Source of the DNA: an uncultured bacterium
GTDB taxonomy: Bacteria > Fermentibacterota > Fermentibacteria > Fermentibacterales > JCC-6
Length of the DNA stretch: 64,000 nucleotides
Direction of reading: 5' to 3'
NCBI GenBank assembly: GCA_964553045.1
Contig: CAZKJG010000008.1
Span: 27,465 to 91,464 of the forward strand
In this document: positions 1 through 42,669 of the stretch, piece after piece
Layout: every line of letters begins with the position of its first letter
Numbering within the stretch: the first letter of the stretch is position 1
Translations under genes and position numbers: made by a program
The notes under the pieces: model-generated
Databases searched by the model: none
What the model saw: the letters and a program-made list of their open reading frames with translations, nothing else
What the model was told of the DNA's origin: nothing

Positions 1-985
1 CGCCAAGTACTACGCGGCCATAGAGGCGGACAGCACCTCCTCCGACGCCTGGGCCTACCTGGGGGAGTCCCTGATCTTCGACGAGCACCTGGACCGGGCC
101 CGACAGACCCTGCAGCGGGCGGTGGACCTGGACCCCCAGTCGGTGTTCGCCATCTGTTACCTGGGCCTGGTGGAGGAGCGCAGCGGCAACCCCGGCAAGG
201 CCCTGGACTACTACCTGCAGGCGCTGCGGATCTCCCCCGGCTACGAGTACGCCGAGAGCAGGATCGCCGTCATCACCGACCCCTCCTACGACGCCGGATG
301 GTGGAGGATGGACGCCAGTCCTGTGAACGCCAGCGTCTGGCTTGACCTGTCCGTGGAGCGGGGCAACGTGGAGGAGAGCGACTACCGCGGAGGAATGGAG
401 GTAAGGCTGAAGCTGGACGGTCAGGGCAGCGCCGTCACCGTGAAGGGCAGCGGCACGCTGGAGGACGAGGATTCCCGGGAGACCCGCAACACCGCCTGGG
501 CCTCCCTGACCGCTTCCTACTTCATCTCCGACGGCATCTACGCCGAGGCCAGCTCCTCCTGGGACCGCCAGCCGCTCACCGTCAGGCCCTGGCAGGTGAG
601 CTCCTACGCCGCTCTGGGCTACAAGAGGTGGATCAGCGACTGGGCGTGGGTGGCCCCGGAGCTGGGCGTGGGCGTGGTGAACAGCCGCTGGAGCTGGGGG
701 GAGGAGCGCACCGACGAGCTGAGCTCCTACGCCTCCCTGGGAATCTGGCTGGAGAGGGAGGCCTCCCTGCTGCCCAGCCTGTGGATCGGCGCGGGCGTGT
801 ACGCCACGCCCGGCCAGCCCGACGACCTGATCTCCGACGGAAACGCCGAGCTCGTCTTCGACGCCTGGCGCCGCATCTCCCTCTCCCTGGGCTGGTCCTA
901 CGACTACACAAAGACCCCCCTCATCTCCGTGTGGGAGAGCATGGACACCGAGACCTACCTCCGGCTCAACATCGACATCTTCTAG
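1..985 (+). CDS. TPR-repeat protein with a C-terminal outer-membrane beta-barrel-like domain (PgaA/BcsC-like exporter porin); 5' end cut by the window edge
   Basis: Frame 2 is open from position 2 to TAG 983-985. TPR-like helical repeats (AWAYLGESL, YYLQALRISPGYEYAESR) are followed by a W/Y/G-rich alternating beta-strand segment ending ...LRLNIDIF; a C-terminal Phe is typical of OMPs. Confidence 0.5.
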   Translation, partial: AKYYAAIEADSTSSDAWAYLGESLIFDEHLDRARQTLQRAVDLDPQSVFAICYLGLVEERSGNPGKALDYYLQALRISPGYEYAESRIAVITDPSYDAGWWRMDASPVNASVWLDLSVERGNVEESDYRGGMEVRLKLDGQGSAVTVKGSGTLEDEDSRETRNTAWASLTASYFISDGIYAEASSSWDRQPLTVRPWQVSSYAALGYKRWISDWAWVAPELGVGVVNSRWSWGEERTDELSSYASLGIWLEREASLLPSLWIGAGVYATPGQPDDLISDGNAELVFDAWRRISLSLGWSYDYTKTPLISVWESMDTETYLRLNIDIF

Positions 986-993
986 CCCCAACC

Positions 994-1220
994 GGGGACG
1001 GAGTTTAAGTTCATCAAGTTCAGCGTCCGTTTAGCCCGGAATGGGACGGAGTTGTTCGCCCCTGAAGGGACGGAGTTTAAGTTCATCAAATCCGTAGCTT
1101 GCGATAGTCCGTAGCGCTTAACGCACTGTATTTGATGAACTTAAACTCCGTCCCGGCCATCGCAAAAGCTCCGTCCCTGAGGTGTCTGCGCTGAACTTGA
1201 TGAACTTAAACTCCGTCCCC
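994..1220. repeat. Nested imperfect palindrome built from four copies of a 24-32 bp motif (GGGACGGAGTTTAAGTTCATCAA): two direct, two inverted
   Basis: Outer pair 994-1025 (GGGGACGGAGTTTAAGTTCATCAAGTTCAGCG) and 1189-1220 (CGCTGAACTTGATGAACTTAAACTCCGTCCCC) are exact reverse complements. Inner pair 1067-1090 and 1131-1154 are exact reverse complements. Partial copies lie at 1043-1053 and 1170-1178. The core is AT-rich in a GC-rich genome. Confidence 0.85.
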
Positions 1221-1247
1221 GTCCGTCCCCGTCCCGGGGGCCGGGGG

Positions 1248-2537
1248 CTACTTGCGGAGAAGGTCCCGGACCGGCTGGCGCAGCATCCGCTCGAAGAAGA
1301 TGTAGGCGATTCCCGTGGATGTGATCAGTACCGCGGACAGTCCCAGCGCCAGCCATCCCACCGGGAAGACGGCCAGGTTGTCCACCGCCGTGCCCAGCGC
1401 CGGGATTATGCTCAGCAGAGCGCGGCTGGCGGCGGCGGCGATGCCGTAGCCCAGTCCGGCGCCTATGATCGTGGTTACCAGCGACATGAAGAAGATCTGA
1501 AAGGCGAACAGCAGGGCCATTCGGCGGTGGTCCGTGCCCAGAGCCACCAGGACGCCGAGCGCGAAGCGCCTGTTGCGGAGGTCGGCCACCAGGGTGTGGA
1601 TGGAGCTGGAGATGGCGGCAGCCAGAACGATGAAGGCCAGGGCCAGCAGGGCAGCGGTTACCGTGTTCACCAGCAGCTCGGCCTTCTGGGCTATGCCCCT
1701 GCGGGTCTCCGCCCGCAGGCCCATGTCCTCCACCCGCCGGACTATCTCCGGAACGTCCTCCGCCCGCTCGGCGGTCACCAGCAGCGAGCTGTATGTCCTG
1801 GGCCTCTCCGGCCGGAACAGCGCATTGACCTGGCCTATGAGCTCCATGGGCGCCGCCAGGGCGAAGAGGGAAAGGTTGCGGGAGGTGGCCACTATGCGGG
1901 CGTTGAGCGTTATCGGTGGCCGTTCCAGTTCCGCTATCGAGCTTCGCCCCAGGGTGAGCCGCACCTCGGTGCCCACCACCCCGTCGGGGGTCAGCCCCAC
2001 CAGATCGTTGGCGTCGGCGAAGCTGGCGTTGTACAGCAGTATCAGGTTCTCGCTGAGCACCAGGGGCAGGTAGGCGCGGGAGGAGTCCTCCAGCGTGTAG
2101 GACCAGTCAACGCTCCGGGCGATGGAGTCGGAGAGGAAGCCCTCGGTGACCCCCTCCAGCGCGATGTCCGTGTAGTAGGGCTCACCGCCCAGCCGGCCGC
2201 GCAGGTAAGCGGGAACGTGGGAGTATATCTGGGGGTCGATCTCGCTCACCCACCGCAGGGCCTCTATCTCCTCCCGCAGCGAGTCCGTGAGCTCCACTCC
2301 GCCGCTCTCCATCCGGAAGAAGCCGGCCCTGCTCCCCTCCGGCGTCACCCGGACCTGCTCTGCGGGCAGGTCGGTTCGAAGGAACCGGTTCAGCACCCGG
2401 TGGACACCCAGGCCCACCGCGATGAAGAACACCAGCAGCAGCGCGGCCGTGAGCTGCATGGCCTGGCTGAATAGGTAATCCCTCCAGTGGCCGCGGTTCC
2501 AGAGGTGCAGCGCCTGGCGGACCTCGCTAAGCTTCAT
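1248..2537 (-). CDS. ABC transporter permease, FtsX/LolC-LolE (MacB-like) family
   Basis: ORF 1248..2609; the likely start is MKLSEV at 2537. Hydrophobic TM segments flank a large periplasmic domain, an architecture typical of LolE/MacB permeases. It overlaps the upstream ATPase gene by 11 nt. Confidence 0.75.
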   Translation of the reverse strand: MKLSEVRQALHLWNRGHWRDYLFSQAMQLTAALLLVFFIAVGLGVHRVLNRFLRTDLPAEQVRVTPEGSRAGFFRMESGGVELTDSLREEIEALRWVSEIDPQIYSHVPAYLRGRLGGEPYYTDIALEGVTEGFLSDSIARSVDWSYTLEDSSRAYLPLVLSENLILLYNASFADANDLVGLTPDGVVGTEVRLTLGRSSIAELERPPITLNARIVATSRNLSLFALAAPMELIGQVNALFRPERPRTYSSLLVTAERAEDVPEIVRRVEDMGLRAETRRGIAQKAELLVNTVTAALLALAFIVLAAAISSSIHTLVADLRNRRFALGVLVALGTDHRRMALLFAFQIFFMSLVTTIIGAGLGYGIAAAASRALLSIIPALGTAVDNLAVFPVGWLALGLSAVLITSTGIAYIFFERMLRQPVRDLLRK

Positions 2538-3204
2538 GGAGCCTGCCGTCCTCCAGGCGGAGCACCCGATCGGCCCGCTGCAGTATGGCCGCAGAGTGGA
2601 CCACCGCAAGAAGCGAGAAGCCCTGCTGGGCGCGCAGGTCGTCCAGCAGATCGAAGAGCCGGCTCTCGCTCTCCTCGTCCAGGCTGGCCGAGGGCTCGTC
2701 GGCCATCAGCACCCGCGGCCTGTTCACCAGACCGCGGGCAACGGCAACCCTCTGCCGCTCTCCGCGGGACAGCAGTGCCGTGGGGGTATCGTCCAGCCTC
2801 AGTGAAAGATGTGTCAGGACCTCCCGGGCCTGCGACTCAGCCGCCTTCAGGTCCGCCCCCGAGAACACCGCCGGGAGGGTGACGTTCTCCAGGGCGGTGA
2901 GGTTGGGAAGCAGATGGAAGTCCTGAAAGACGAAACCGATGACGTTTCGTCTGATCGAGGCCAGTCCCGCCCTGTCCATGTTACCCGCGTCCCGGCCCTC
3001 GATGGTGATCCGGCCCCCATAGGCGGGATCGTGGAGCCCGATTATGCCCAGAAGCGTGCTCTTGCCCACGCCGCTGCGTCCCACGATGGCCATGAACTCC
3101 CCGGGGTGGATGTCCAGGTCGAGGCCGTCCAGCACCACCCGGTCGCCGAAGCGGCGTCCTATGCCCCGGGCCTGCAGGACCGGTTCGTCGGAGGCCTGGC
3201 TCAC
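2527..3204 (-). CDS. ABC transporter ATP-binding protein (LolD/MacB-type)
   Basis: Walker A GRSGVGKST, ABC signature LSRGERQRVAVARGL and Walker B VLMADEPSASLD are present. GTG start at 3204 overlaps the stop of the upstream lipoprotein gene (GTGA). Confidence 0.85.
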   Translation of the reverse strand: MSQASDEPVLQARGIGRRFGDRVVLDGLDLDIHPGEFMAIVGRSGVGKSTLLGIIGLHDPAYGGRITIEGRDAGNMDRAGLASIRRNVIGFVFQDFHLLPNLTALENVTLPAVFSGADLKAAESQAREVLTHLSLRLDDTPTALLSRGERQRVAVARGLVNRPRVLMADEPSASLDEESESRLFDLLDDLRAQQGFSLLAVVHSAAILQRADRVLRLEDGRLHEA

Positions 3205-4175: not shown

Positions 4176-4251
4176 GCTGGCGTAGCTCAATTGGCAGAGC
4201 AGCTGATTTGTAATCAGCAGGTTGCGGGTTCGAGTCCCATCGCCAGCTCCA
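4176..4251 (+). tRNA. thrU: tRNA-Thr (anticodon TGT)
   Basis: Cloverleaf: acceptor GCTGGCG/CGCCAGC, D-arm GCTCAATTGGCAGAGC, anticodon loop TTTGTAA, T-loop TTCGAGT, encoded CCA. One C-A mismatch in the T-stem. Confidence 0.8.
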
Positions 4252-4272
4252 GTTCCGAAGATGACATAGACG

Positions 4273-4358
4273 GGCGAGGTTCCCGAGCGGTCAAAGGGGG
4301 CAGACTGTAAATCTGTTGGCTTAAGCCTTCGGTGGTTCGAATCCACCCCTCGCCACCA
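4273..4358 (+). tRNA. tyrU: tRNA-Tyr (anticodon GTA), class II long variable arm
   Basis: Acceptor GGCGAGG/CCTCGCC, anticodon loop CTGTAAA, long variable arm, T-arm GGTGGTTCGAATCCACC, encoded CCA. Confidence 0.9.
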
Positions 4359-4588
4359 GCTGCAAGTCGCCCGAGGCTAAGGCCTGAAATACGCCAGCGG
4401 TCCTTTCATTGCAACCCGCAAGGCCAACGCCCGGGACGATACCGATGGGCTGCGCAGAGTCCTGACGAAGAGCGAAACGCACCGCGGTGGGCGCAGGCCC
4501 TCCTGCGGTGTGCCGGATGGGCTGCGCGACGACCCGCGCGGTGCGCGGGAGGACTAAGTACGGAACCACGACCGGGGGGAAGAATGCA

Positions 4589-4975
4589 GCTTCCCCGTCC
4601 GGCAAAGTTCAGGAAGGACCCCTGCGCGGGAGAGCGGAGCACGGCGCAGGATTGGAAGTTTGACCGGGGCGGTGAGCGTAGCGTCCCCGCGAAGCGGATG
4701 CAGGTTGTATGGCGCGGGAGAGCGGAGCATTGCCACCAAAGCCAGGAGGCGGGCGGCAAGCGAAGCTTCCCCGTCCGGCATAGTCCAAGGAGGACCCCTG
4801 CGCGGGAGAGCGGAGCACAGCGCAGGATTGGAAGTTTGACCGGGGCGGTGAGCGTAGCGTCCCCGCGAAGCGGGTGAAGGTAGGATGGCGCGGGAAAGCG
4901 TAGCATTGCCACCAAAGCCAGGAGGCGGGCGGCAAGCGAAGCTTCCCCGTCCGGCATAGTCCGGCACGGAGTTCG
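4589..4975. repeat. 176-bp tandem direct repeat, 2 full copies plus a ~35-bp partial third, in the tRNA-Tyr/tRNA-Gly spacer
   Basis: GCTTCCCCGTCCGGCA recurs at 4589, 4765 and 4941 (period 176). Each unit is two related ~88-bp halves, both containing GCGCGGGAGAGCGGAGCA. Confidence 0.85.
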
Positions 4976-4976
4976 G

Positions 4977-5052
4977 GCGGGAATAGCTCAGTTGGCAGAG
5001 CATCAGCCTTCCAAGCTGAGGGTCGCGGGTTCGAATCCCGTTTCCCGCTCCA
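4977..5052 (+). tRNA. glyT: tRNA-Gly (anticodon TCC)
   Basis: Acceptor GCGGGAA/TTCCCGC, anticodon loop CTTCCAA, T-arm GCGGGTTCGAATCCCGT, CCA. Confidence 0.9.
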
Positions 5053-5090
5053 GCTCCGCCGGCAGGCAGAAGGCAGGAGAGTGGCAGCCA

Positions 5091-5166
<76 letters not shown>

Positions 5167-5208
5167 GCTTAGGCCCATTTAGCGAGGTGAAAGTCAGGAG
5201 GAGGAGCT

Positions 5209-6402
<1,194 letters not shown>

Positions 6403-6418
6403 GCCGGCTGTTTTGCGG

Positions 6419-6562
6419 GTGATAATTACGCTGGCCTGCCAGGAGTGCAGGCGAAGGAACTACACTACAACCAAGAACAGGCGTACGACGCCGGACAGGA
6501 TCGAGCTGAAGAAGTACTGCAGGTTCTGCGGCAGGCATACGCTGCACAGGGAGACGAAATAG
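6419..6562 (+). CDS. rpmG: 50S ribosomal protein L33, short zinc-ribbon form
   Basis: Below the ORF-track size cutoff. GTG start; translation [47 protein letters not shown] matches the CxxC...CxxC L33 family. Followed by GC hairpin CCGCCCCGCGCAGGCGGGGCGG at 6569-6592. Confidence 0.85.
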
Positions 6563-6606
6563 CATTGTCCGCCCCGCGCAGGCGGGGCGGGCGCGCCTTC
6601 GGCTGA

Positions 6607-6682
6607 AGGGCCGTAGCACAATTGGCAGTGCACCGGACTCCAAATCCGGCGGTTGGGGGTTCGAGTCCCTCCGGCCCTGCCA
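6607..6682 (+). tRNA. trpT: tRNA-Trp (anticodon CCA)
   Basis: Acceptor AGGGCCG/CGGCCCT, anticodon loop CTCCAAA, T-arm GGGGGTTCGAGTCCCTC, CCA. Confidence 0.9.
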
Positions 6683-7858: not shown

Positions 7859-8284
7859 ATGGCCAAGAAGGTTATGGGCGTGGTGAAGCTCCAGCTGCAG
7901 GCGGGACAGGCCACACCGGCCCCCCCTGTAGGCCCCGCGCTGGGCCAGTACGGGATAAACATGCAGGCCTTCTGCAAGGACTTCAATGCCCGAACCCAGG
8001 GCAAGGAAGGTCTCATAATCCCTGCTGTTATAACGATCTACAAGGATCGGAGCTTCACTTTCGAGCTCAAGTCGCCGCCGGCGTCCGTCCTCCTGAAGAG
8101 GGCGGCCGGGCTGGCGAAGGGATCTCCCGAGCCCAACCGACAGAAGGTGGGCACCGTCACTGTCGAGCAGTGCAGGGAGATCGCCAAGTTGAAGTGGGTG
8201 GACCTGAACGCCGCCTCCGAGGAGACGGCGATAGAGATGATAAAGGGTACGGCCCGAAGCATGGGGCTGGAGGTGGAAGGCTGA
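7859..8284 (+). CDS. rplK: 50S ribosomal protein L11
   Basis: [44 protein letters not shown] matches the L11 N-terminal domain. Confidence 0.95.
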
Positions 8285-9003: not shown

Positions 9004-9534
9004 ATGGCTGTAACCAGAAGCAGGAAGAAGGAGATAGTCGAAGCCCTCTCCGAGAACTTCGGTGACGCGAAGAGCTTCGTGCTCACGGACTTCACCGGTA
9101 TCGACGTCGAGGAGATGACCGAGCTGAGGGCGAAGATGCGCGAGGCCGGCGTCGGCTACACTATAGCCAAGAACACTCTGCTCCGGATGATCTTCGACAA
9201 CGTGGGGATTCCGGAGGGCGAGGCGTTCCTGGCGGGCATCGACGGCCCCACGGCAGTGGCCTACGGCGACGACGAGGTGATGCCCGCGAAGGTCATCAGC
9301 GAGTTCGCCGAGGACCATGACGGCAGGCCGTCCATCAAGGCCGGCTTCGTAGCCGGGGAGAGCATGGACATCGAGGGCGTGGAGCGGCTGGCGAAGGTGC
9401 CCGGTCGCGAGGAGCTGCTTTCGCGGCTCGTGGGCTCGGCGCAGTCGCCCATCCAGGGATTCGTCTGCGTGAGCAGCGCCATCATCAGGAAGTTCCTCTA
9501 CGCGGTCAACGCCGTGAGGGAGAGCAGGGAATAG
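9004..9534 (+). CDS. rplJ: 50S ribosomal protein L10
   Basis: Starts one nt after the rplA stop. MAVTRSRKKEIVEALSENF... Confidence 0.93.
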   Translation: MAVTRSRKKEIVEALSENFGDAKSFVLTDFTGIDVEEMTELRAKMREAGVGYTIAKNTLLRMIFDNVGIPEGEAFLAGIDGPTAVAYGDDEVMPAKVISEFAEDHDGRPSIKAGFVAGESMDIEGVERLAKVPGREELLSRLVGSAQSPIQGFVCVSSAIIRKFLYAVNAVRESRE

Positions 9535-22507: not shown

Positions 22508-23137
22508 ATGAGCGGCTTGATGGCTCGCAAGGTCGGTATGACCCGTGTATTCAGAGAAGGCGGTAACTCTGTGCCAGTTACTGTTTTAGAGGCCGAGCCG
22601 TGCCCCGTTGTCCAGGTGAGGACATCGGAGCGGGACGGCTACGAGGCGGTGCAGATAGGCTACAGCCCCAAGAGGGAGAGCAGGCTCACCAGGCCCATGG
22701 CCGGGCACCTGGCCCGCGCCGGTGCGAGCGCCGTGGCCCGCCTGAAGGAGGTTCCCGTTCCGGAGGGCGGGGCAGAGGAGGGCGACACCCTCGACGTGAC
22801 CATGTTCGCCGAGGGCGAGCTGGTTGACGTCACCGGCTACTCCAAGGGACGCGGCTTCCAGGGCGTTGTGAAGCGGCACGGATTCTCCAGCGGAGACGAA
22901 TCCCACGGGAACAAGTCCACGAGGATTCCCGGGGCTATCGGACAGTGCGCCACTCCTTCACGGGTCTACAAGAACCGGAGGATGCCGGGCAGGCACGGCG
23001 GCAGGAAGGTCACCGTCAGGAACCTCGAGGTCATAGAGGTCGACCCCGAGAACAACCTGCTGGTGGTCAAGGGAGCCGTTCCGGGCTCCAAGAACGGATA
23101 CCTCCTGGTGCGCAAGAACTCCAGGGGAGGGGCGTGA
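22508..23137 (+). CDS. rplC: 50S ribosomal protein L3
   Basis: MSGLMARKVGMTRVFREGGNSVPVTVLEAEPCPVVQVRT... Confidence 0.95.
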   Translation: MSGLMARKVGMTRVFREGGNSVPVTVLEAEPCPVVQVRTSERDGYEAVQIGYSPKRESRLTRPMAGHLARAGASAVARLKEVPVPEGGAEEGDTLDVTMFAEGELVDVTGYSKGRGFQGVVKRHGFSSGDESHGNKSTRIPGAIGQCATPSRVYKNRRMPGRHGGRKVTVRNLEVIEVDPENNLLVVKGAVPGSKNGYLLVRKNSRGGA

Positions 23138-23766
23138 TGGCAGTGGCAGAGGCAAGGGTATACAGTATGGACGGCAGCGAGGTCGGAACCCTTGACCTCC
23201 CCGAGGAGGCTTTCGGCACCGCCGTCAGCACCCATCTCCTCTGGGAGGTTGTGAGGGCCGAGCAGGCCGGCGCCCGCGCCGGGCTGGCCTCCACCAGGGG
23301 GCGCAGCGAGGTGAGGGCCTCCGGCCGCAAGCCGTGGAGGCAGAAGCACACGGGCAACGCCAGGGCGGGCTCAGTCGCCTCCCCCATCTGGCGCGGAGGC
23401 GGCATTGCCACCGGGCCCAGGCCCCGGCGGTTCCACCTGAAGGTCAACCGCAAGGTCCGTCGGAAGGCGCTGGCCGGGATCCTCTCGGAGAGACTGGGCG
23501 AGGGCAACTTCCGCGTGATCCGCGACCTGTCCACCGAGGGACGGACCAGGAACATGGCCGACCTTCTGCGGGGTCAGGAGTGCGGCGACCGTCTCACGGT
23601 CCTCCTTCTGGATGACGACGACGAGCCGGCCTACAGGGCGGCGCGCAACATCCCCAACCTGGTGGCGGTAAGCGCGGCCCGGGTTCCGGTGGGAACCCTG
23701 GTCAACGCCGAGGTGGTTCTGGTATCCGAGGGGGCTCTCGAGTCCCTCAAGAGGAGGGTGATGTAG
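23137..23766 (+). CDS. rplD: 50S ribosomal protein L4
   Basis: ATG overlaps the rplC stop (GTGATG; GTG at 23134 also possible). MAVAEARVYSMDGSEVGTLDLPEEAFG... Confidence 0.9.
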   Translation: MAVAEARVYSMDGSEVGTLDLPEEAFGTAVSTHLLWEVVRAEQAGARAGLASTRGRSEVRASGRKPWRQKHTGNARAGSVASPIWRGGGIATGPRPRRFHLKVNRKVRRKALAGILSERLGEGNFRVIRDLSTEGRTRNMADLLRGQECGDRLTVLLLDDDDEPAYRAARNIPNLVAVSAARVPVGTLVNAEVVLVSEGALESLKRRVM

Positions 23767-24054
23767 ATGGACTCCAGGCAGATCATCCTTCAGCCGGTGG
23801 TCACAGAGAAGTACACTGTGGTCAGGGAGCTCGAGAACAAGTACTGCTTCCGGGTGGATCCCAGGGCCGGCAAGAGGGAGATAGCGAGAGCGATAGAGGA
23901 GATATTCGACGTTCAAGTGGTGGGCGTCAGAACCATGAACGTGCAGGGCAAGCTGAGGCGAATGGGTCGCAACATCGGCCGCCGGCCTTCCTGGAAGAAG
24001 GCCATCGTGGCTCTGGCCGAGGGCGACAGCATCGACTTCTTCGAAGGGGTGTAG
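23767..24054 (+). CDS. rplW: 50S ribosomal protein L23
   Basis: MDSRQIILQPVVTEKYTVVRELENKYCFRVDPRAGKREIARAIEEIF. Confidence 0.93.
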   Translation: MDSRQIILQPVVTEKYTVVRELENKYCFRVDPRAGKREIARAIEEIFDVQVVGVRTMNVQGKLRRMGRNIGRRPSWKKAIVALAEGDSIDFFEGV

Positions 24055-24057
24055 AGG

Positions 24058-24903
24058 ATGGGCATGAAGAGATCCAAGCCGGTAACCCCCGGCAGCAGGT
24101 TCAGGGTCTCCCCCGACTTCTCCGAGGTGACCAGAGAAAAGCCCGAGAAGTCCCTGCTTCGGCCCCTCAAGAAGAAGGCCGGCAGGAACAACCAGGGAAG
24201 GCTCACCTCCCGGAATCGCGGCGGCGGACACAAGCGCCGCTACCGGGTGATAGACTTCAAGCGCGACAAGCACGGCGTGCCGGGCACGGTGCGCACCGTG
24301 GAGTACGATCCCAACAGGTCCGCCAGGATAGCTCTGGTGGTCTACGCCGACGGGGAGAAGAGGTACATCCTCGCCCCCCACAGGCTGGAGATGGGCCAGG
24401 AGGTCACATCCGGCCCCGACGCTCCCCCCGAGGTGGGAAACCACCTTCCTCTGAGCAGGATTCCACTGGGATCGATGATCCACAACGTGGAGATGAAGCC
24501 GGGCAAGGGCGGCCAGATCGCCCACGCCGCCGGTGCCTCGGTGCAGCTGCTGGCCCGCGAGGGCGGCTACGCAACCCTCAAGATGCCCAGCCGCGAGAAC
24601 CGCCGGATCTCCGTAAAGTGCATGGCCACCATGGGCACCGTGGGCAACGCCGAGCACAGCCTGGCGGATCCGGGAAAGGCCGGCAAGTCGCGCCACATGG
24701 GCCGCAGGCCCCACGTGCGCGGCGTGGTGAAGAACCCCGTCGACCACCCGATGGGCGGCGGCGAGGGGCGCTCCAGCGGCGGCAGACATCCCTGCTCGCC
24801 CTGGGGGCAGCTGGCCAAGGGCCTGAGGACCAGGAAGAGAAGCAAGGAATCCGACCGGTACATAACCCGGCGGAGGCCTACCGGAAAGAAGAGGAGGAGC
24901 TAA
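24058..24903 (+). CDS. rplB: 50S ribosomal protein L2
   Basis: [17 protein letters not shown]..., [15 protein letters not shown]...[25 protein letters not shown]. Confidence 0.95.
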
Positions 24904-25170
24904 GTGACTCGATCTCTGAAGAAGGGGCCGTACGTGGACGGCAAGCTCCTCGAGAAGGTGGAGGAGATCAACGCCTCCGGCAGCAAGAAGGTCATAAGGA
25001 CCTGGGCCAGGCGCTCCACCATTCCGCCGGAGTTCGTCGGGCACACCTTCGCCGTCTACAACGGCAGGAAGTTCATACCGGTGTACGTTGACGAGAACAT
25101 GGTCGGCCACAAGCTGGGGGAGTTCGCTCCCACCCGGACCTTCCGGGGCCACAGAGCGCAGACGATATAG
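24904..25170 (+). CDS. rpsS: 30S ribosomal protein S19
   Basis: GTG start; [19 protein letters not shown]...[19 protein letters not shown]. Confidence 0.94.
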
Positions 25171-25177
25171 GCGGGTG

Positions 25178-25549
25178 ATGCAGATGGACGCTGTTGCGAA
25201 GGCCAGGTTCGTCAGGGTGTCGCCCCGAAAGGCCCGCCAGGTGGCGGACCTGATCCGCGGCAGGTCGGTGAACCAGGCGCTCTCCATTCTGGTGACGGTT
25301 CCCAGAAGGGCCTCGAAGATCATGGAGAAGGCCCTGGACTCCGCCGTGGCCAACGCGGTGGAGCTGGCGGGAGGTTCACCGCTGGACGCCGACGAGCTGA
25401 AGGTATCGAATGTAACCGTCGACCAGGGCCCCACGATGATGAGGTGGAAGCCCCGCGCCAGGGGACGGGCCACCCGCATCAGGCACCGCACCAGTCACAT
25501 CTCGGTGACGGTATCCAGTGAGGCCGCCGAGCTGAAACAGGAGGGATAG
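25178..25549 (+). CDS. rplV: 50S ribosomal protein L22
   Basis: Start ambiguous: ATG at 25178 or 25184. [36 protein letters not shown]. Confidence 0.88.
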
Positions 25550-41453: not shown

Positions 41454-42669
41454 ACTGATTCTGTGCGCCGCCCTCCTGGCGGCGGGGGGCGCGGCGGAGG
41501 ACTTCCTGCCCATGACCCCCATGGAGACCGACAGGGTGCCGGTCCGACTCACTGTGGAGGGCCGGGGCGAGACCGCCCGCCGGGCCCGGGAGCAGCTGGA
41601 GATGGACGTCTTCCTCTCCGGCCTTCTGCGGAAGGCCGGAGAGGAAGAGGAGTACGCCTCCGCGGAGGTGATGGTGTCCCGCATGGCGGGCGCGGTGAGC
41701 CTGGACGCGGAGGTGCGGGCCGGCGGCGAGCTGCTGCTGGACCGCCGCTACAGCGGAAGCTCCGTCTACCCCCTGGTGCACGCCCTCACCGACGACATGG
41801 TCTACGTGCTCACCGGCGAGAGGGGCATAGCCTCCACCAGGATCGCCTACGTCTGCAGGTCCGGAGTGAGCTACTCGCTGGCGGTGAAGAGCCTGGACCC
41901 CAGGGAGGGCCAGCGGGTGCTCTCCGACAGCGACGTGATCACCACCCCGGCCTGGGGGCCGGACGGGACCAGGATCGCCCTCACCTCCTACCGCTCCGAG
42001 AGCGCCGACCTCTACCTCTACGACCTGGCGGCTGGGAGGGCCATACAGCTTATGGCCGGCGGCGGCCTCTACACCTCGCCGGCCTGGAGCCCCGACGGCT
42101 CGGCCATAGCCTTCACCCGGTCCCGGGAGTCCAACTCCGACATCTACCTGCTGGAGATGGATGGGGGGGAGGCCCGCAGGCTGACGGCCAGACCCTCCAT
42201 AGAGACGGCGGCGGACTTCTCGCCCAACGGCCAGCAGATGATCTTCACCTCCGACCGGCTGGGATTTCCCCAGCTCTACACCATGGACAGCGCCGGAGGG
42301 GGCGCGGTGCGCCTCACCGGCGTGCACCGCTACATGGACAGCCCGGCCTGGTCCCCCTCCGGGGACCGGATCGCCTACACCGCCCGCGTGGGCGGGGACT
42401 TTCACATATTCGTAATGGACGCGGACGGCACCAACGTCCGCCAGGTGACATTCGAGGGATCCCTCAACGAGAACCCGGTCTGGTCGCCCACCGGACGCCA
42501 TCTGGCGTTCAGCAGCGACCGCGGCGGCGAACGGGCGGTATACGTCCTGGAGCTGTCCGGGCTTACGGTGATCAGGCTCAGCGGGGCGGGGGAATGCTAC
42601 CTGCCCACCTGGTCGCCGCTTCCTCCCCTGGGGGACGAGAGGCACGCTGAAAGGACGGTGCGCCGATGA
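41434..42669 (+). CDS. tolB: Tol-Pal system beta-propeller protein TolB
   Basis: TTG start with signal peptide; repeated AWSPDG / SPAWSP propeller blades. Confidence 0.9.

Follow-up and report, generated by a model that had tools for sequence, protein, structure and literature searches.

What is the large nested palindrome near the start of this stretch of DNA, and by which kind of process did it arise? The stretch, here called the window, comprises 64,000 nucleotides (nt) of contig CAZKJG010000008.1 from an uncultured bacterium of the Fermentibacterota. The palindromic element extends from position 993 to position 1221 and occupies the gap between two convergent genes. An earlier reading, made from the sequence only, had proposed either an element resembling a miniature inverted-repeat transposable element (MITE) or a bidirectional terminator or cruciform. 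We conclude, with a probability of roughly three in four, that the element is a non-autonomous repeat cluster of a TIRYT system. TIRYTs are encoded by TIRtrons, in which genes resembling those of REP-associated tyrosine transposases (RAYTs) have long terminal inverted repeats (TIRs), not REP hairpins, on their flanks (Di Nocera 2013, PMC3733652). Twenty of 26 TIRYTs belong to TnpA_REP subclass 2.1, which is defined by a C-terminal Bac_DnaA_C/HTH (helix-turn-helix) domain (Quentin 2018, PMC6006769); the system would be a sister of REPIN-RAYT. The observations behind this conclusion are the dispersal of the repeat, ends identical to the repeats that flank a transposase gene, co-variation of motif and transposase, the lack of target-site duplications, an empty site and a symmetry that is kept on both arms.

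The element is built from a single motif. A 23-mer (GGGACGGAGTTTAAGTTCATCAA) is present in four exact copies, on the plus strand at 995 and 1067 and on the minus strand at 1132 and 1197, while the shuffle expectation is 0.00 copies. These copies form two nested inverted repeats with 100% identity, an outer one of 33 nt (993-1025/1189-1221) and an inner one of 25 nt (1067-1091/1130-1154). Both had been described in the sequence-only reading, and each proved to be one base wider. A middle tier contains two half copies. The left one was placed correctly in that reading, but the right one had been put at 1170-1178 and is found at 1167-1177, with one mismatch. The CCGTAGC duplication that it reported in the centre is present in the loop (1092-1098 and 1110-1116). 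This duplication is window-specific, and no conserved counterpart was found in the orthologous copies L010 and L011. As also noted earlier, the element is AT-rich, with a GC content of 0.47-0.55 vs 0.64-0.73 in the flanks. Either strand folds into a single long three-tier hairpin; folding of the RNA on both strands had been suggested as a check. The predicted fold energy is about -154 kcal/mol for RNA (z -14 to -15) and -84.5 kcal/mol for single-stranded DNA (z -15.5). No inverted repeat was found within a single arm; every pair is arm-to-arm, indicating that the unit itself is not palindromic. The 23-mer is confined to this one locus in the window.

Related genomes contain many more copies, an outcome that favors a mobile element according to the test set in the sequence-only reading. 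When one genome of each species was scanned for exact 21-mer matches, four loci (L001-L004) were obtained, all in one Ca. Fermentibacteraceae metagenome-assembled genome (MAG; JAWLEP01). A scan of metagenome contigs added 15 loci (L005-L019), 13 of them from one sample. The family thus comprises at least 19 loci in related genomes, and exact matching sets a lower bound on the copy number. All copies are intergenic. They occur as single motifs, as simple hairpin dimers (e.g., L007) and as nested clusters. The basic motif is a terminal repeat of ~28-33 nt, (GTCAAC)CGGGGACGGAGTTTAAGTTCATCAAGTT, and every copy begins with (C)GGGGACGGAG. None of the copies carries a GTAG (or CGTC) tag. No obvious DnaA-box-like sequence was seen in the repeat, which accords with a remark in PMC6006769.

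A composite of ~175 nt was detected at six independent loci. Its parts are an outer pair of repeats, spacers bearing the conserved motif ATTC..GCTAAACGGA and an inner hairpin of 88 nt, which in turn is a repeat pair with a loop that is homologous between loci (CAGTGCG...YGCAAGCYCTG). Because the composite recurs at independent loci, it, and not the 23-mer alone, is the unit that spread. The composite has an orientation. According to the conserved loop and spacer motifs, compared with those of L003 and L004, the window copy reads on the minus strand. Its inner loop is homologous to the loops of L002, L003, L004, L005, L010 and L015, and it has one tier beyond the ~175-nt composite.

We then inspected the boundaries of the copies. 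No direct target-site duplication was found at any of ~20 loci, and the flanks that recur, GTCAAC...GTTGAC, have the inverted and not the direct orientation. CG precedes nearly all outer copies. At 17 of 30 termini the preceding sequence is RAC(C)G, typically as GTCAAC-CG or as a stop codon followed by C (TAA-C-G); in dimers, this flank is usually present at one end only. In the window, the outer left arm is preceded by CCCAAC, the flank type of one of the repeats at the transposase locus L025 (the repeat on the DUF1846 side; see below).

These boundaries bear on the possibility that the element is a classical MITE, i.e., a deletion derivative of a DDE-transposase insertion sequence (IS) that was mobilized in trans via its TIRs. 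Perfect TIRs of 33 nt, small size, AT-richness, intergenic location and multiple copies would all suit a MITE. However, target-site duplications are missing, and no parental DDE IS with the same TIRs was found in the ~370 kb of sequence examined. There was also no match to viral contigs (exact 21-mer) or to plasmid and phage collections (blastn, distant mode). Furthermore, the only gene found bracketed by these repeats encodes a Y1/HUH and not a DDE protein, and this gene is single-copy and syntenic, unlike an IS. We consider a classical MITE highly improbable. Of the MITE-like proposal, the mobile part is retained, in view of the at least 19 loci and the empty site, whereas the classical MITE part is not.

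The bracketed gene was recognized at L013 as an open reading frame (ORF) of 325 aa whose stop codon is 14 nt away from a motif copy. The encoded protein has a Pfam match to Y1_Tnp (IS200-like transposase; E 2.7e-12) and a weak one to Bac_DnaA_C. Its sole NCBIfam match is the REP-associated tyrosine transposase (REP_Tyr_transpos; E 7e-17). Nine close homologs were found with 58-96% identity, each on one or two contigs, and the next matches fall to 43%. In L013, L020, L021, L023, L024 and L025, the gene occupies the same syntenic slot, with the order rpsF-ssb-rpsR-rplI, a divergent DUF1846 gene, the transposase gene and a convergent C25 peptidase gene. Since the slot is shared and each homolog is found on one or two contigs only, the transposase gene is inherited vertically as a single copy. 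This is the behavior of RAYTs (PMC5581495) and not of IS elements.

In six lineages, inverted motif copies ~2.66 kb apart bracket the DUF1846 and transposase genes, with one of the two copies located 13-14 nt past the stop codon of the transposase gene. In L025, the lineage that diverges most (58% protein identity), both bracketing copies carry the same variant, GGGACGGAGTACAACTTGTACAA (also written TACAACTTGTACAA), and therefore motif and protein lineage co-vary. The DUF1846 (UPF0371) gene is always found within the repeat-bracketed unit, divergent from the transposase gene (L013 4912-6420 and equivalents). In a distant proteobacterial homolog, L031 (38% identical), repeats directly bracket the transposase gene alone. 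They are inverted repeats of 25 nt that begin with GGGGACG and are AT-rich thereafter, and the downstream copy lies 10 nt past the stop codon. Homologs are numerous (2543 at E <=0.001), indicating that TIRYTs are widespread. In a more distant Fermentibacteraceae MAG (L029), we also observed an inverted GGGACGGAGGGTTTT pair (8103-8117 on the plus and 9255-9269 on the minus strand) that brackets an Endonuclease_1 gene. This pair has the 9-nt core of the family and may represent a diverged repeat family or a chance occurrence.

Sequence and structure comparisons support the assignment of the protein. The HUH residues H60 and H62 and the residue Y119 are invariant among 28 homologs. The AlphaFold model of protein P0002 has a pLDDT of 85. 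Its best match in the PDB is the Escherichia coli REP-associated tyrosine transposase with a REP hairpin (4er8; TM 0.70), followed by the TnpA proteins of ISDra2, IS200 and IS608. The fold of its C-terminal domain matches the DNA-binding domain of DnaA (3pvp, 1j1v; TM 0.71-0.72). The family sequence profile also matches DnaA domain IV (E 3e-5). A single-sequence phmmer search of the transposase against the PDB returned nothing at E <=1.

To follow the history of the window copy, its locus was compared with those of relatives. L010 and L011/L026 are orthologues, with the same two genes and flanks that are 87-92% identical. In L027, whose flanks are ~70% identical, the same convergent genes are 10 nt apart and the element is absent. 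In L029, the gap between these genes is 67 nt and the motif is absent. Thus, the element was gained within the lineage. This also shows that the lineage as a whole does not have a hairpin between these two genes as a regulatory feature.

The latter result is relevant to the proposal that the element is primarily a host hairpin, i.e., a bidirectional terminator or an mRNA-stabilizing 3' structure, and that the repeats spread or persist through that role. Its location speaks for such a function: it lies between convergent genes, as the sequence-only reading stated, and the gap has no other terminator. Extreme stability on both strands would fit as well. Across the family, a co-oriented long ORF ends <=60 nt upstream in 27 of 42 outer termini, and in six of those the distance from its end to the motif is exactly 2 nt. 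The genes on either side of composite copies are convergent (three or four of the six independent loci) or in tandem (two of six) but never divergent. In addition, REPs are known to act in this way (PMC3733652). However, a T-run is missing after either stem, and no terminator-like site was predicted in the region 700-1500. Relatives do without the element, single copies that are incapable of forming a hairpin are common, and termination explains neither the conserved loop and spacer motifs nor the link to a transposase. A primary host function is thus improbable, and the view of the element as a terminator in the first place is not supported, considering the lack of a T-run, the conservation of the between-stem sequence across loci and the absence from more distant relatives. 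The two convergent genes have the element in their 3' regions, and therefore it probably also enters their transcripts as a very stable hairpin. Effects on termination or on the stability of the mRNA would be at most secondary. No sigma-70-like promoter was found in the element region. In Rfam searches of 700-1500 at permissive E-values, just sub-threshold microRNA-like hairpin matches were obtained (28 bits vs 60-95).

At L006 (855-885), and possibly at L007 (12150-12185), a long ORF enters the repeat from upstream and stops at an internal TAA (GGAGTTTAAG). The repeat may supply the stop codon of the neighboring gene in some insertions. This is tentative, because long spurious ORFs are common in GC-rich DNA.

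Comparison of orthologous copies revealed strong structural turnover. When the window is compared with L010, identity is 100% in the 23-mer arms, 87-89% in the coding flanks and 63-79% in the spacers and loop. The arms are therefore conserved or homogenized. Relative to L010 and L011, the window has an extra 23 nt in the left and 22 nt in the right arm, which lie symmetrically and correspond to the extra middle tier with the half copies. The outer stem was changed on both arms together (GTTCAGCG/CGCTGAAC vs GTTTT/AAAAC). In ten inner hairpins, 97.9% of the stem cells are paired and four positions were changed on both sides; a one-base bulge was seen on either arm. The loop is inverted between the orthologues L012 and L019 (41/41 matches when inverted vs 28/41 when collinear) and between L002 and L005 (33/41 vs 26/41). 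At the site shared by L003, L012 and L019, the interiors differ in the number of arms and the loop is replaced. Finally, tandem stutters composed of the first 5-10 bases of the repeat and a few flank bases were detected at six loci, always at the outer boundary. Loop inversions, stutters and two-arm changes point to repeated breakage, copying or recombination at the arms.

In one lineage, that with a 91%-identical permease (L026/L011), the outer arm of the orthologous element is interrupted by a 2169-bp segment (L026 2276-4444; the junction is also seen at L011 216-260). The segment has imperfect inverted ends of 31 nt (GGTTCTTCTTCGGAAAAGTGAGTTGATTGGA) and an 8-bp direct duplication (AGTTCATC), and it carries a Pyr_redox-family gene but no recognizable transposase gene. 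It looks like a separate DDE-style mobile unit that took the repeat as its target.

Could the repeats be immobile, forming a domesticated array of binding sites for a co-opted transposase homolog, for example in replication, recombination or nucleoid organization? The gene is vertical, single-copy and syntenic down to 58% protein identity. The motif is 100% conserved, while the neighboring coding DNA diverged by 11-13%, and the orthologous sites are occupied in all close relatives. According to the structural model, the protein would have a duplex-binding domain similar to DnaA domain IV, and domestication of RAYTs was argued by Bertels 2017 (PMC5581495). On the other hand, the architectures at orthologous sites differ markedly (two vs three tiers, extra arms, flipped or different loops), several unrelated loci share one composite unit, and one site is empty. 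These differences therefore point to turnover rather than to fixed sites, and we regard an immobile array as unlikely. Domestication as such is compatible with mobility.

The turnover also raises a possibility concerning the enzyme. Terminal hairpins in the inverted terminal repeats (ITRs) of parvoviruses flip and flop, and they are resolved by the HUH nickase Rep. A chromosomal HUH enzyme might similarly nick the hairpins and re-copy them in place, by hairpin transfer with flip and flop as in parvoviral terminal resolution. The loop inversions, the concerted changes of the arms and the stutters may then be footprints of that one in-place process. We consider this idea speculative and rather doubtful. 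If it is true, the TIRYT-repeat pair would not be a cut-and-paste transposon but a self-maintaining system, passed on vertically, in which nested palindromes grow at gene ends one tier at a time.

Several points weigh against the assignment to a TIRYT system. The Y1 transposase gene is absent from the 64-kb window, so that the presumed partner of the window copy is the gene seen in the relatives. (A tblastn hit of the transposase to 23962-24534, with E 0.41, is a false positive in the ribosomal protein L4/L2 region and was discarded.) Against the RayT equivalog NF047646, the protein scores 61.6 bits, under the cutoff of 80. The repeats bracket two genes, DUF1846 and the transposase gene, not the transposase gene alone, and the copy on the DUF1846 side could be merely another dispersed copy that was conserved by chance. 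Flanking GGGG-type repeats were not found at L032, one of the two distant homologs examined. The terminal motif GGGGACGG matches only 7 of 8 positions of GGGGWSAS, with G for A at position 7; GGGGWSAS is carried by many TIRs but holds for "some" TIRs only (PMC3733652). No recent insertion polymorphism was seen among the loci compared; every close relative (flanks >=85%) keeps an element at the orthologous site, and the lone empty site is in a ~70%-identical relative, the flanks of which are too diverged to show a clean insertion. Moreover, the upkeep of symmetry and the loop flips could come from template switching during replication or from recombination between arms, without a transposase.

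Assuming that the element belongs to a TIRYT system, the following mechanism can be envisaged. In single-stranded DNA, or in DNA extruded as a cruciform, the inverted repeats would pair as a duplex stem. The transposase would bind the duplex motif through its C-terminal domain, which resembles DnaA domain IV; with such recognition, a single unit would not have to form a hairpin. Cutting and rejoining of single-stranded DNA at the GGGG-proximal boundary would be the task of the Y1/HUH domain. The element would thereby be moved or copied without target duplication, and RAC(C)G flanks would be preferred, often a stop codon TAA followed by C. All these steps, including catalysis, cut site and present-day mobility, are predictions.

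The features of the element, its flanking genes and the stutters at other loci are listed in Table 1.

Table 1. Coordinates of the element, its parts and its flanking genes in the window, and of boundary stutters at all six loci.
Feature	Position	Strand	Remarks
Flanking gene, DUF481/TPR protein	122-985	+	Stop codon TAG 7 nt before the outer arm (993)
Whole element	993-1221	-	Three-tier nested palindrome; made of the terminal-repeat motif in four full and two half copies
Outer left arm, terminal inverted repeat CGGGGACGGAGTTTAAGTTCATCAAGTTCAGCG	993-1025	+	Preceded by CCCAAC
Spacer with family-conserved motif, minus-strand reading ATTCCGGGCTAAACGGA	1026-1042	-	Matches ATTC..GCTAAACGGA of L003, L004 and L010
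Half copy GGGACGGAGTT, middle tier left	1043-1053	+	Exact copy of the first 11 nt of the motif
Inner left arm of the 88-nt hairpin unit	1067-1091	+	
Inner-hairpin loop	1092-1129	-	Minus-strand start CAGTGCGTTAA (window 1118-1128), end ..TCGCAAGC
Inner right arm of the 88-nt hairpin unit	1130-1154	-	
Half copy GGGACGGAGCT, middle tier right	1167-1177	-	First 11 nt of the motif, one mismatch
Outer right arm	1189-1221	-	Perfect complement of 993-1025
Boundary stutter	1212-1238	.	TCCGTCCCCG twice, then TCCCGGGG; the outermost bases of the terminal repeat are duplicated again in tandem
Flanking gene, FtsX/MacB-type ABC permease	1248-2609	-	Stop codon 26 nt from the element
Stutters	L012 9880-9926; L015 7055-7085; L011 48-75; L002 1913-1950; L007 12322-12340; window 1212-1238		

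The best database match of the permease encoded in the window is 91% identical, and the named relatives are Fermentibacteraceae, Aegiribacteria and Sabulitectum. The gene order beside the permease operon is that of the tuf-secE-nusG-rplK region in the relatives L028 and L029, and ribosomal protein genes (L4/L2 region) are present at ~22900-25500. At the gathering score, Rfam detected five tRNAs and nothing else in the whole window; these are the genes for tRNAs Thr, Tyr, Gly, Thr and Trp at 4176-6682. The sole other long local palindrome of the window, at 41609-41648, is a perfect inverted repeat of 18 bp around a loop of 4 nt (TCTTCCTCTCCGGCCTTC GAAG GAAGGCCGGAGAGGAAGA); its sequence is unrelated to the element.

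TIRYTs are widespread yet barely treated in the literature searched. The locus and its relatives provide a clean natural example in an uncultured phylum, with a single-copy syntenic gene, repeats that have its flanking motif and co-variation of motif and protein lineage. The orthologous copies record how a palindrome changes: tiers were added on both arms, loops were flipped and boundaries stuttered. Predictions that can be addressed biochemically follow for the class, namely, that the HTH domain binds the duplex motif and that cleavage occurs near CG|GGGACG. In practical terms, a recurrent repeat that confounds the assembly and annotation of Fermentibacteria MAGs has been identified.

How does the element compare with known systems? 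With MITEs such as Correia/NEMIS, ERIC and RUP, it has in common its size, TIRs, a strong hairpin potential and a position near gene ends. Unlike this family, such MITEs originate from DDE insertion sequences and generate target duplications. The resemblance to parvovirus ITRs would lie in a loop that occurs in both orientations and in the association with an HUH endonuclease; however, the element is chromosomal and internal and does not form the end of a linear genome.

The IS200/IS605 elements and their miniature derivatives (PATEs) are closer, since they also have a Y1/HUH domain and neither the classical DDE-type TIR chemistry nor target-site duplications. The polar flank described here, with one end usually at RAC(C)G (often GTCAAC or TAAC), recalls the left flank TTAC of IS608. 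In contrast, the ends of IS200/IS605 elements are short subterminal hairpins and not inverted repeats of 28-33 nt, and their transposases are multi-copy and lack an HTH domain.

REPIN-RAYT systems (Bertels and Rainey 2011, PMC3116915; Bertels 2017, PMC5581495) agree with the family in more respects. Both have inverted doublets that fold into long hairpins and, as a partner, a Y1 transposase gene that is flanked by the same repeat and inherited vertically as a single copy; in both, the repeats are intergenic, located mostly downstream of genes, and free of target duplications. The best structural match, 4er8, is a TnpA_REP protein as well. The differences are nevertheless substantial. The unit described here is not palindromic and has no GTAG tag; it is present in tens of copies at most, compared with roughly 50 to hundreds per genome in REP systems; and the protein has twice the length and one more DNA-binding domain, and its score is under the RayT cutoff of NCBIfam. 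A canonical REP/REPIN was rejected because of the non-palindromic unit, the missing tag, the low abundance and the sub-cutoff protein. REP-like sequences were not found next to subclass 2.1 genes (PMC6006769).

From the TIRYTs and TIRtrons described so far, the family differs, apart from its terminal motif, in the bracketing of two genes and in a dispersed unit with a conserved loop and a composite structure of two nested tiers. In the TIRYT literature searched, Fermentibacteria are unreported as a host phylum, and synteny, co-variation of motif and lineage, and loop inversions are undescribed for the class. The similarities concern protein and repeat alike. TIRYTs are Y1/HUH TnpA_REP homologs with an HTH domain of the DnaA_C type (Bac_DnaA_C/HTH_23/HTH_28), and both domains are present here. 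Their genes, like the one described here, are bracketed by long inverted repeats that are not hairpins and begin with GGGG; here, the downstream repeat is located ~10-13 nt past the stop codon, as in the proteobacterial homolog L031. In some genomes, TIRs form moderately abundant families of singles, dimers or groups (PMC3733652), and the repeats described here likewise have a moderate copy number and are scattered as singles, dimers and clusters. The observation is thus new in the phylum Fermentibacteria but belongs to a described class, the TIRYTs and their TIRtrons.

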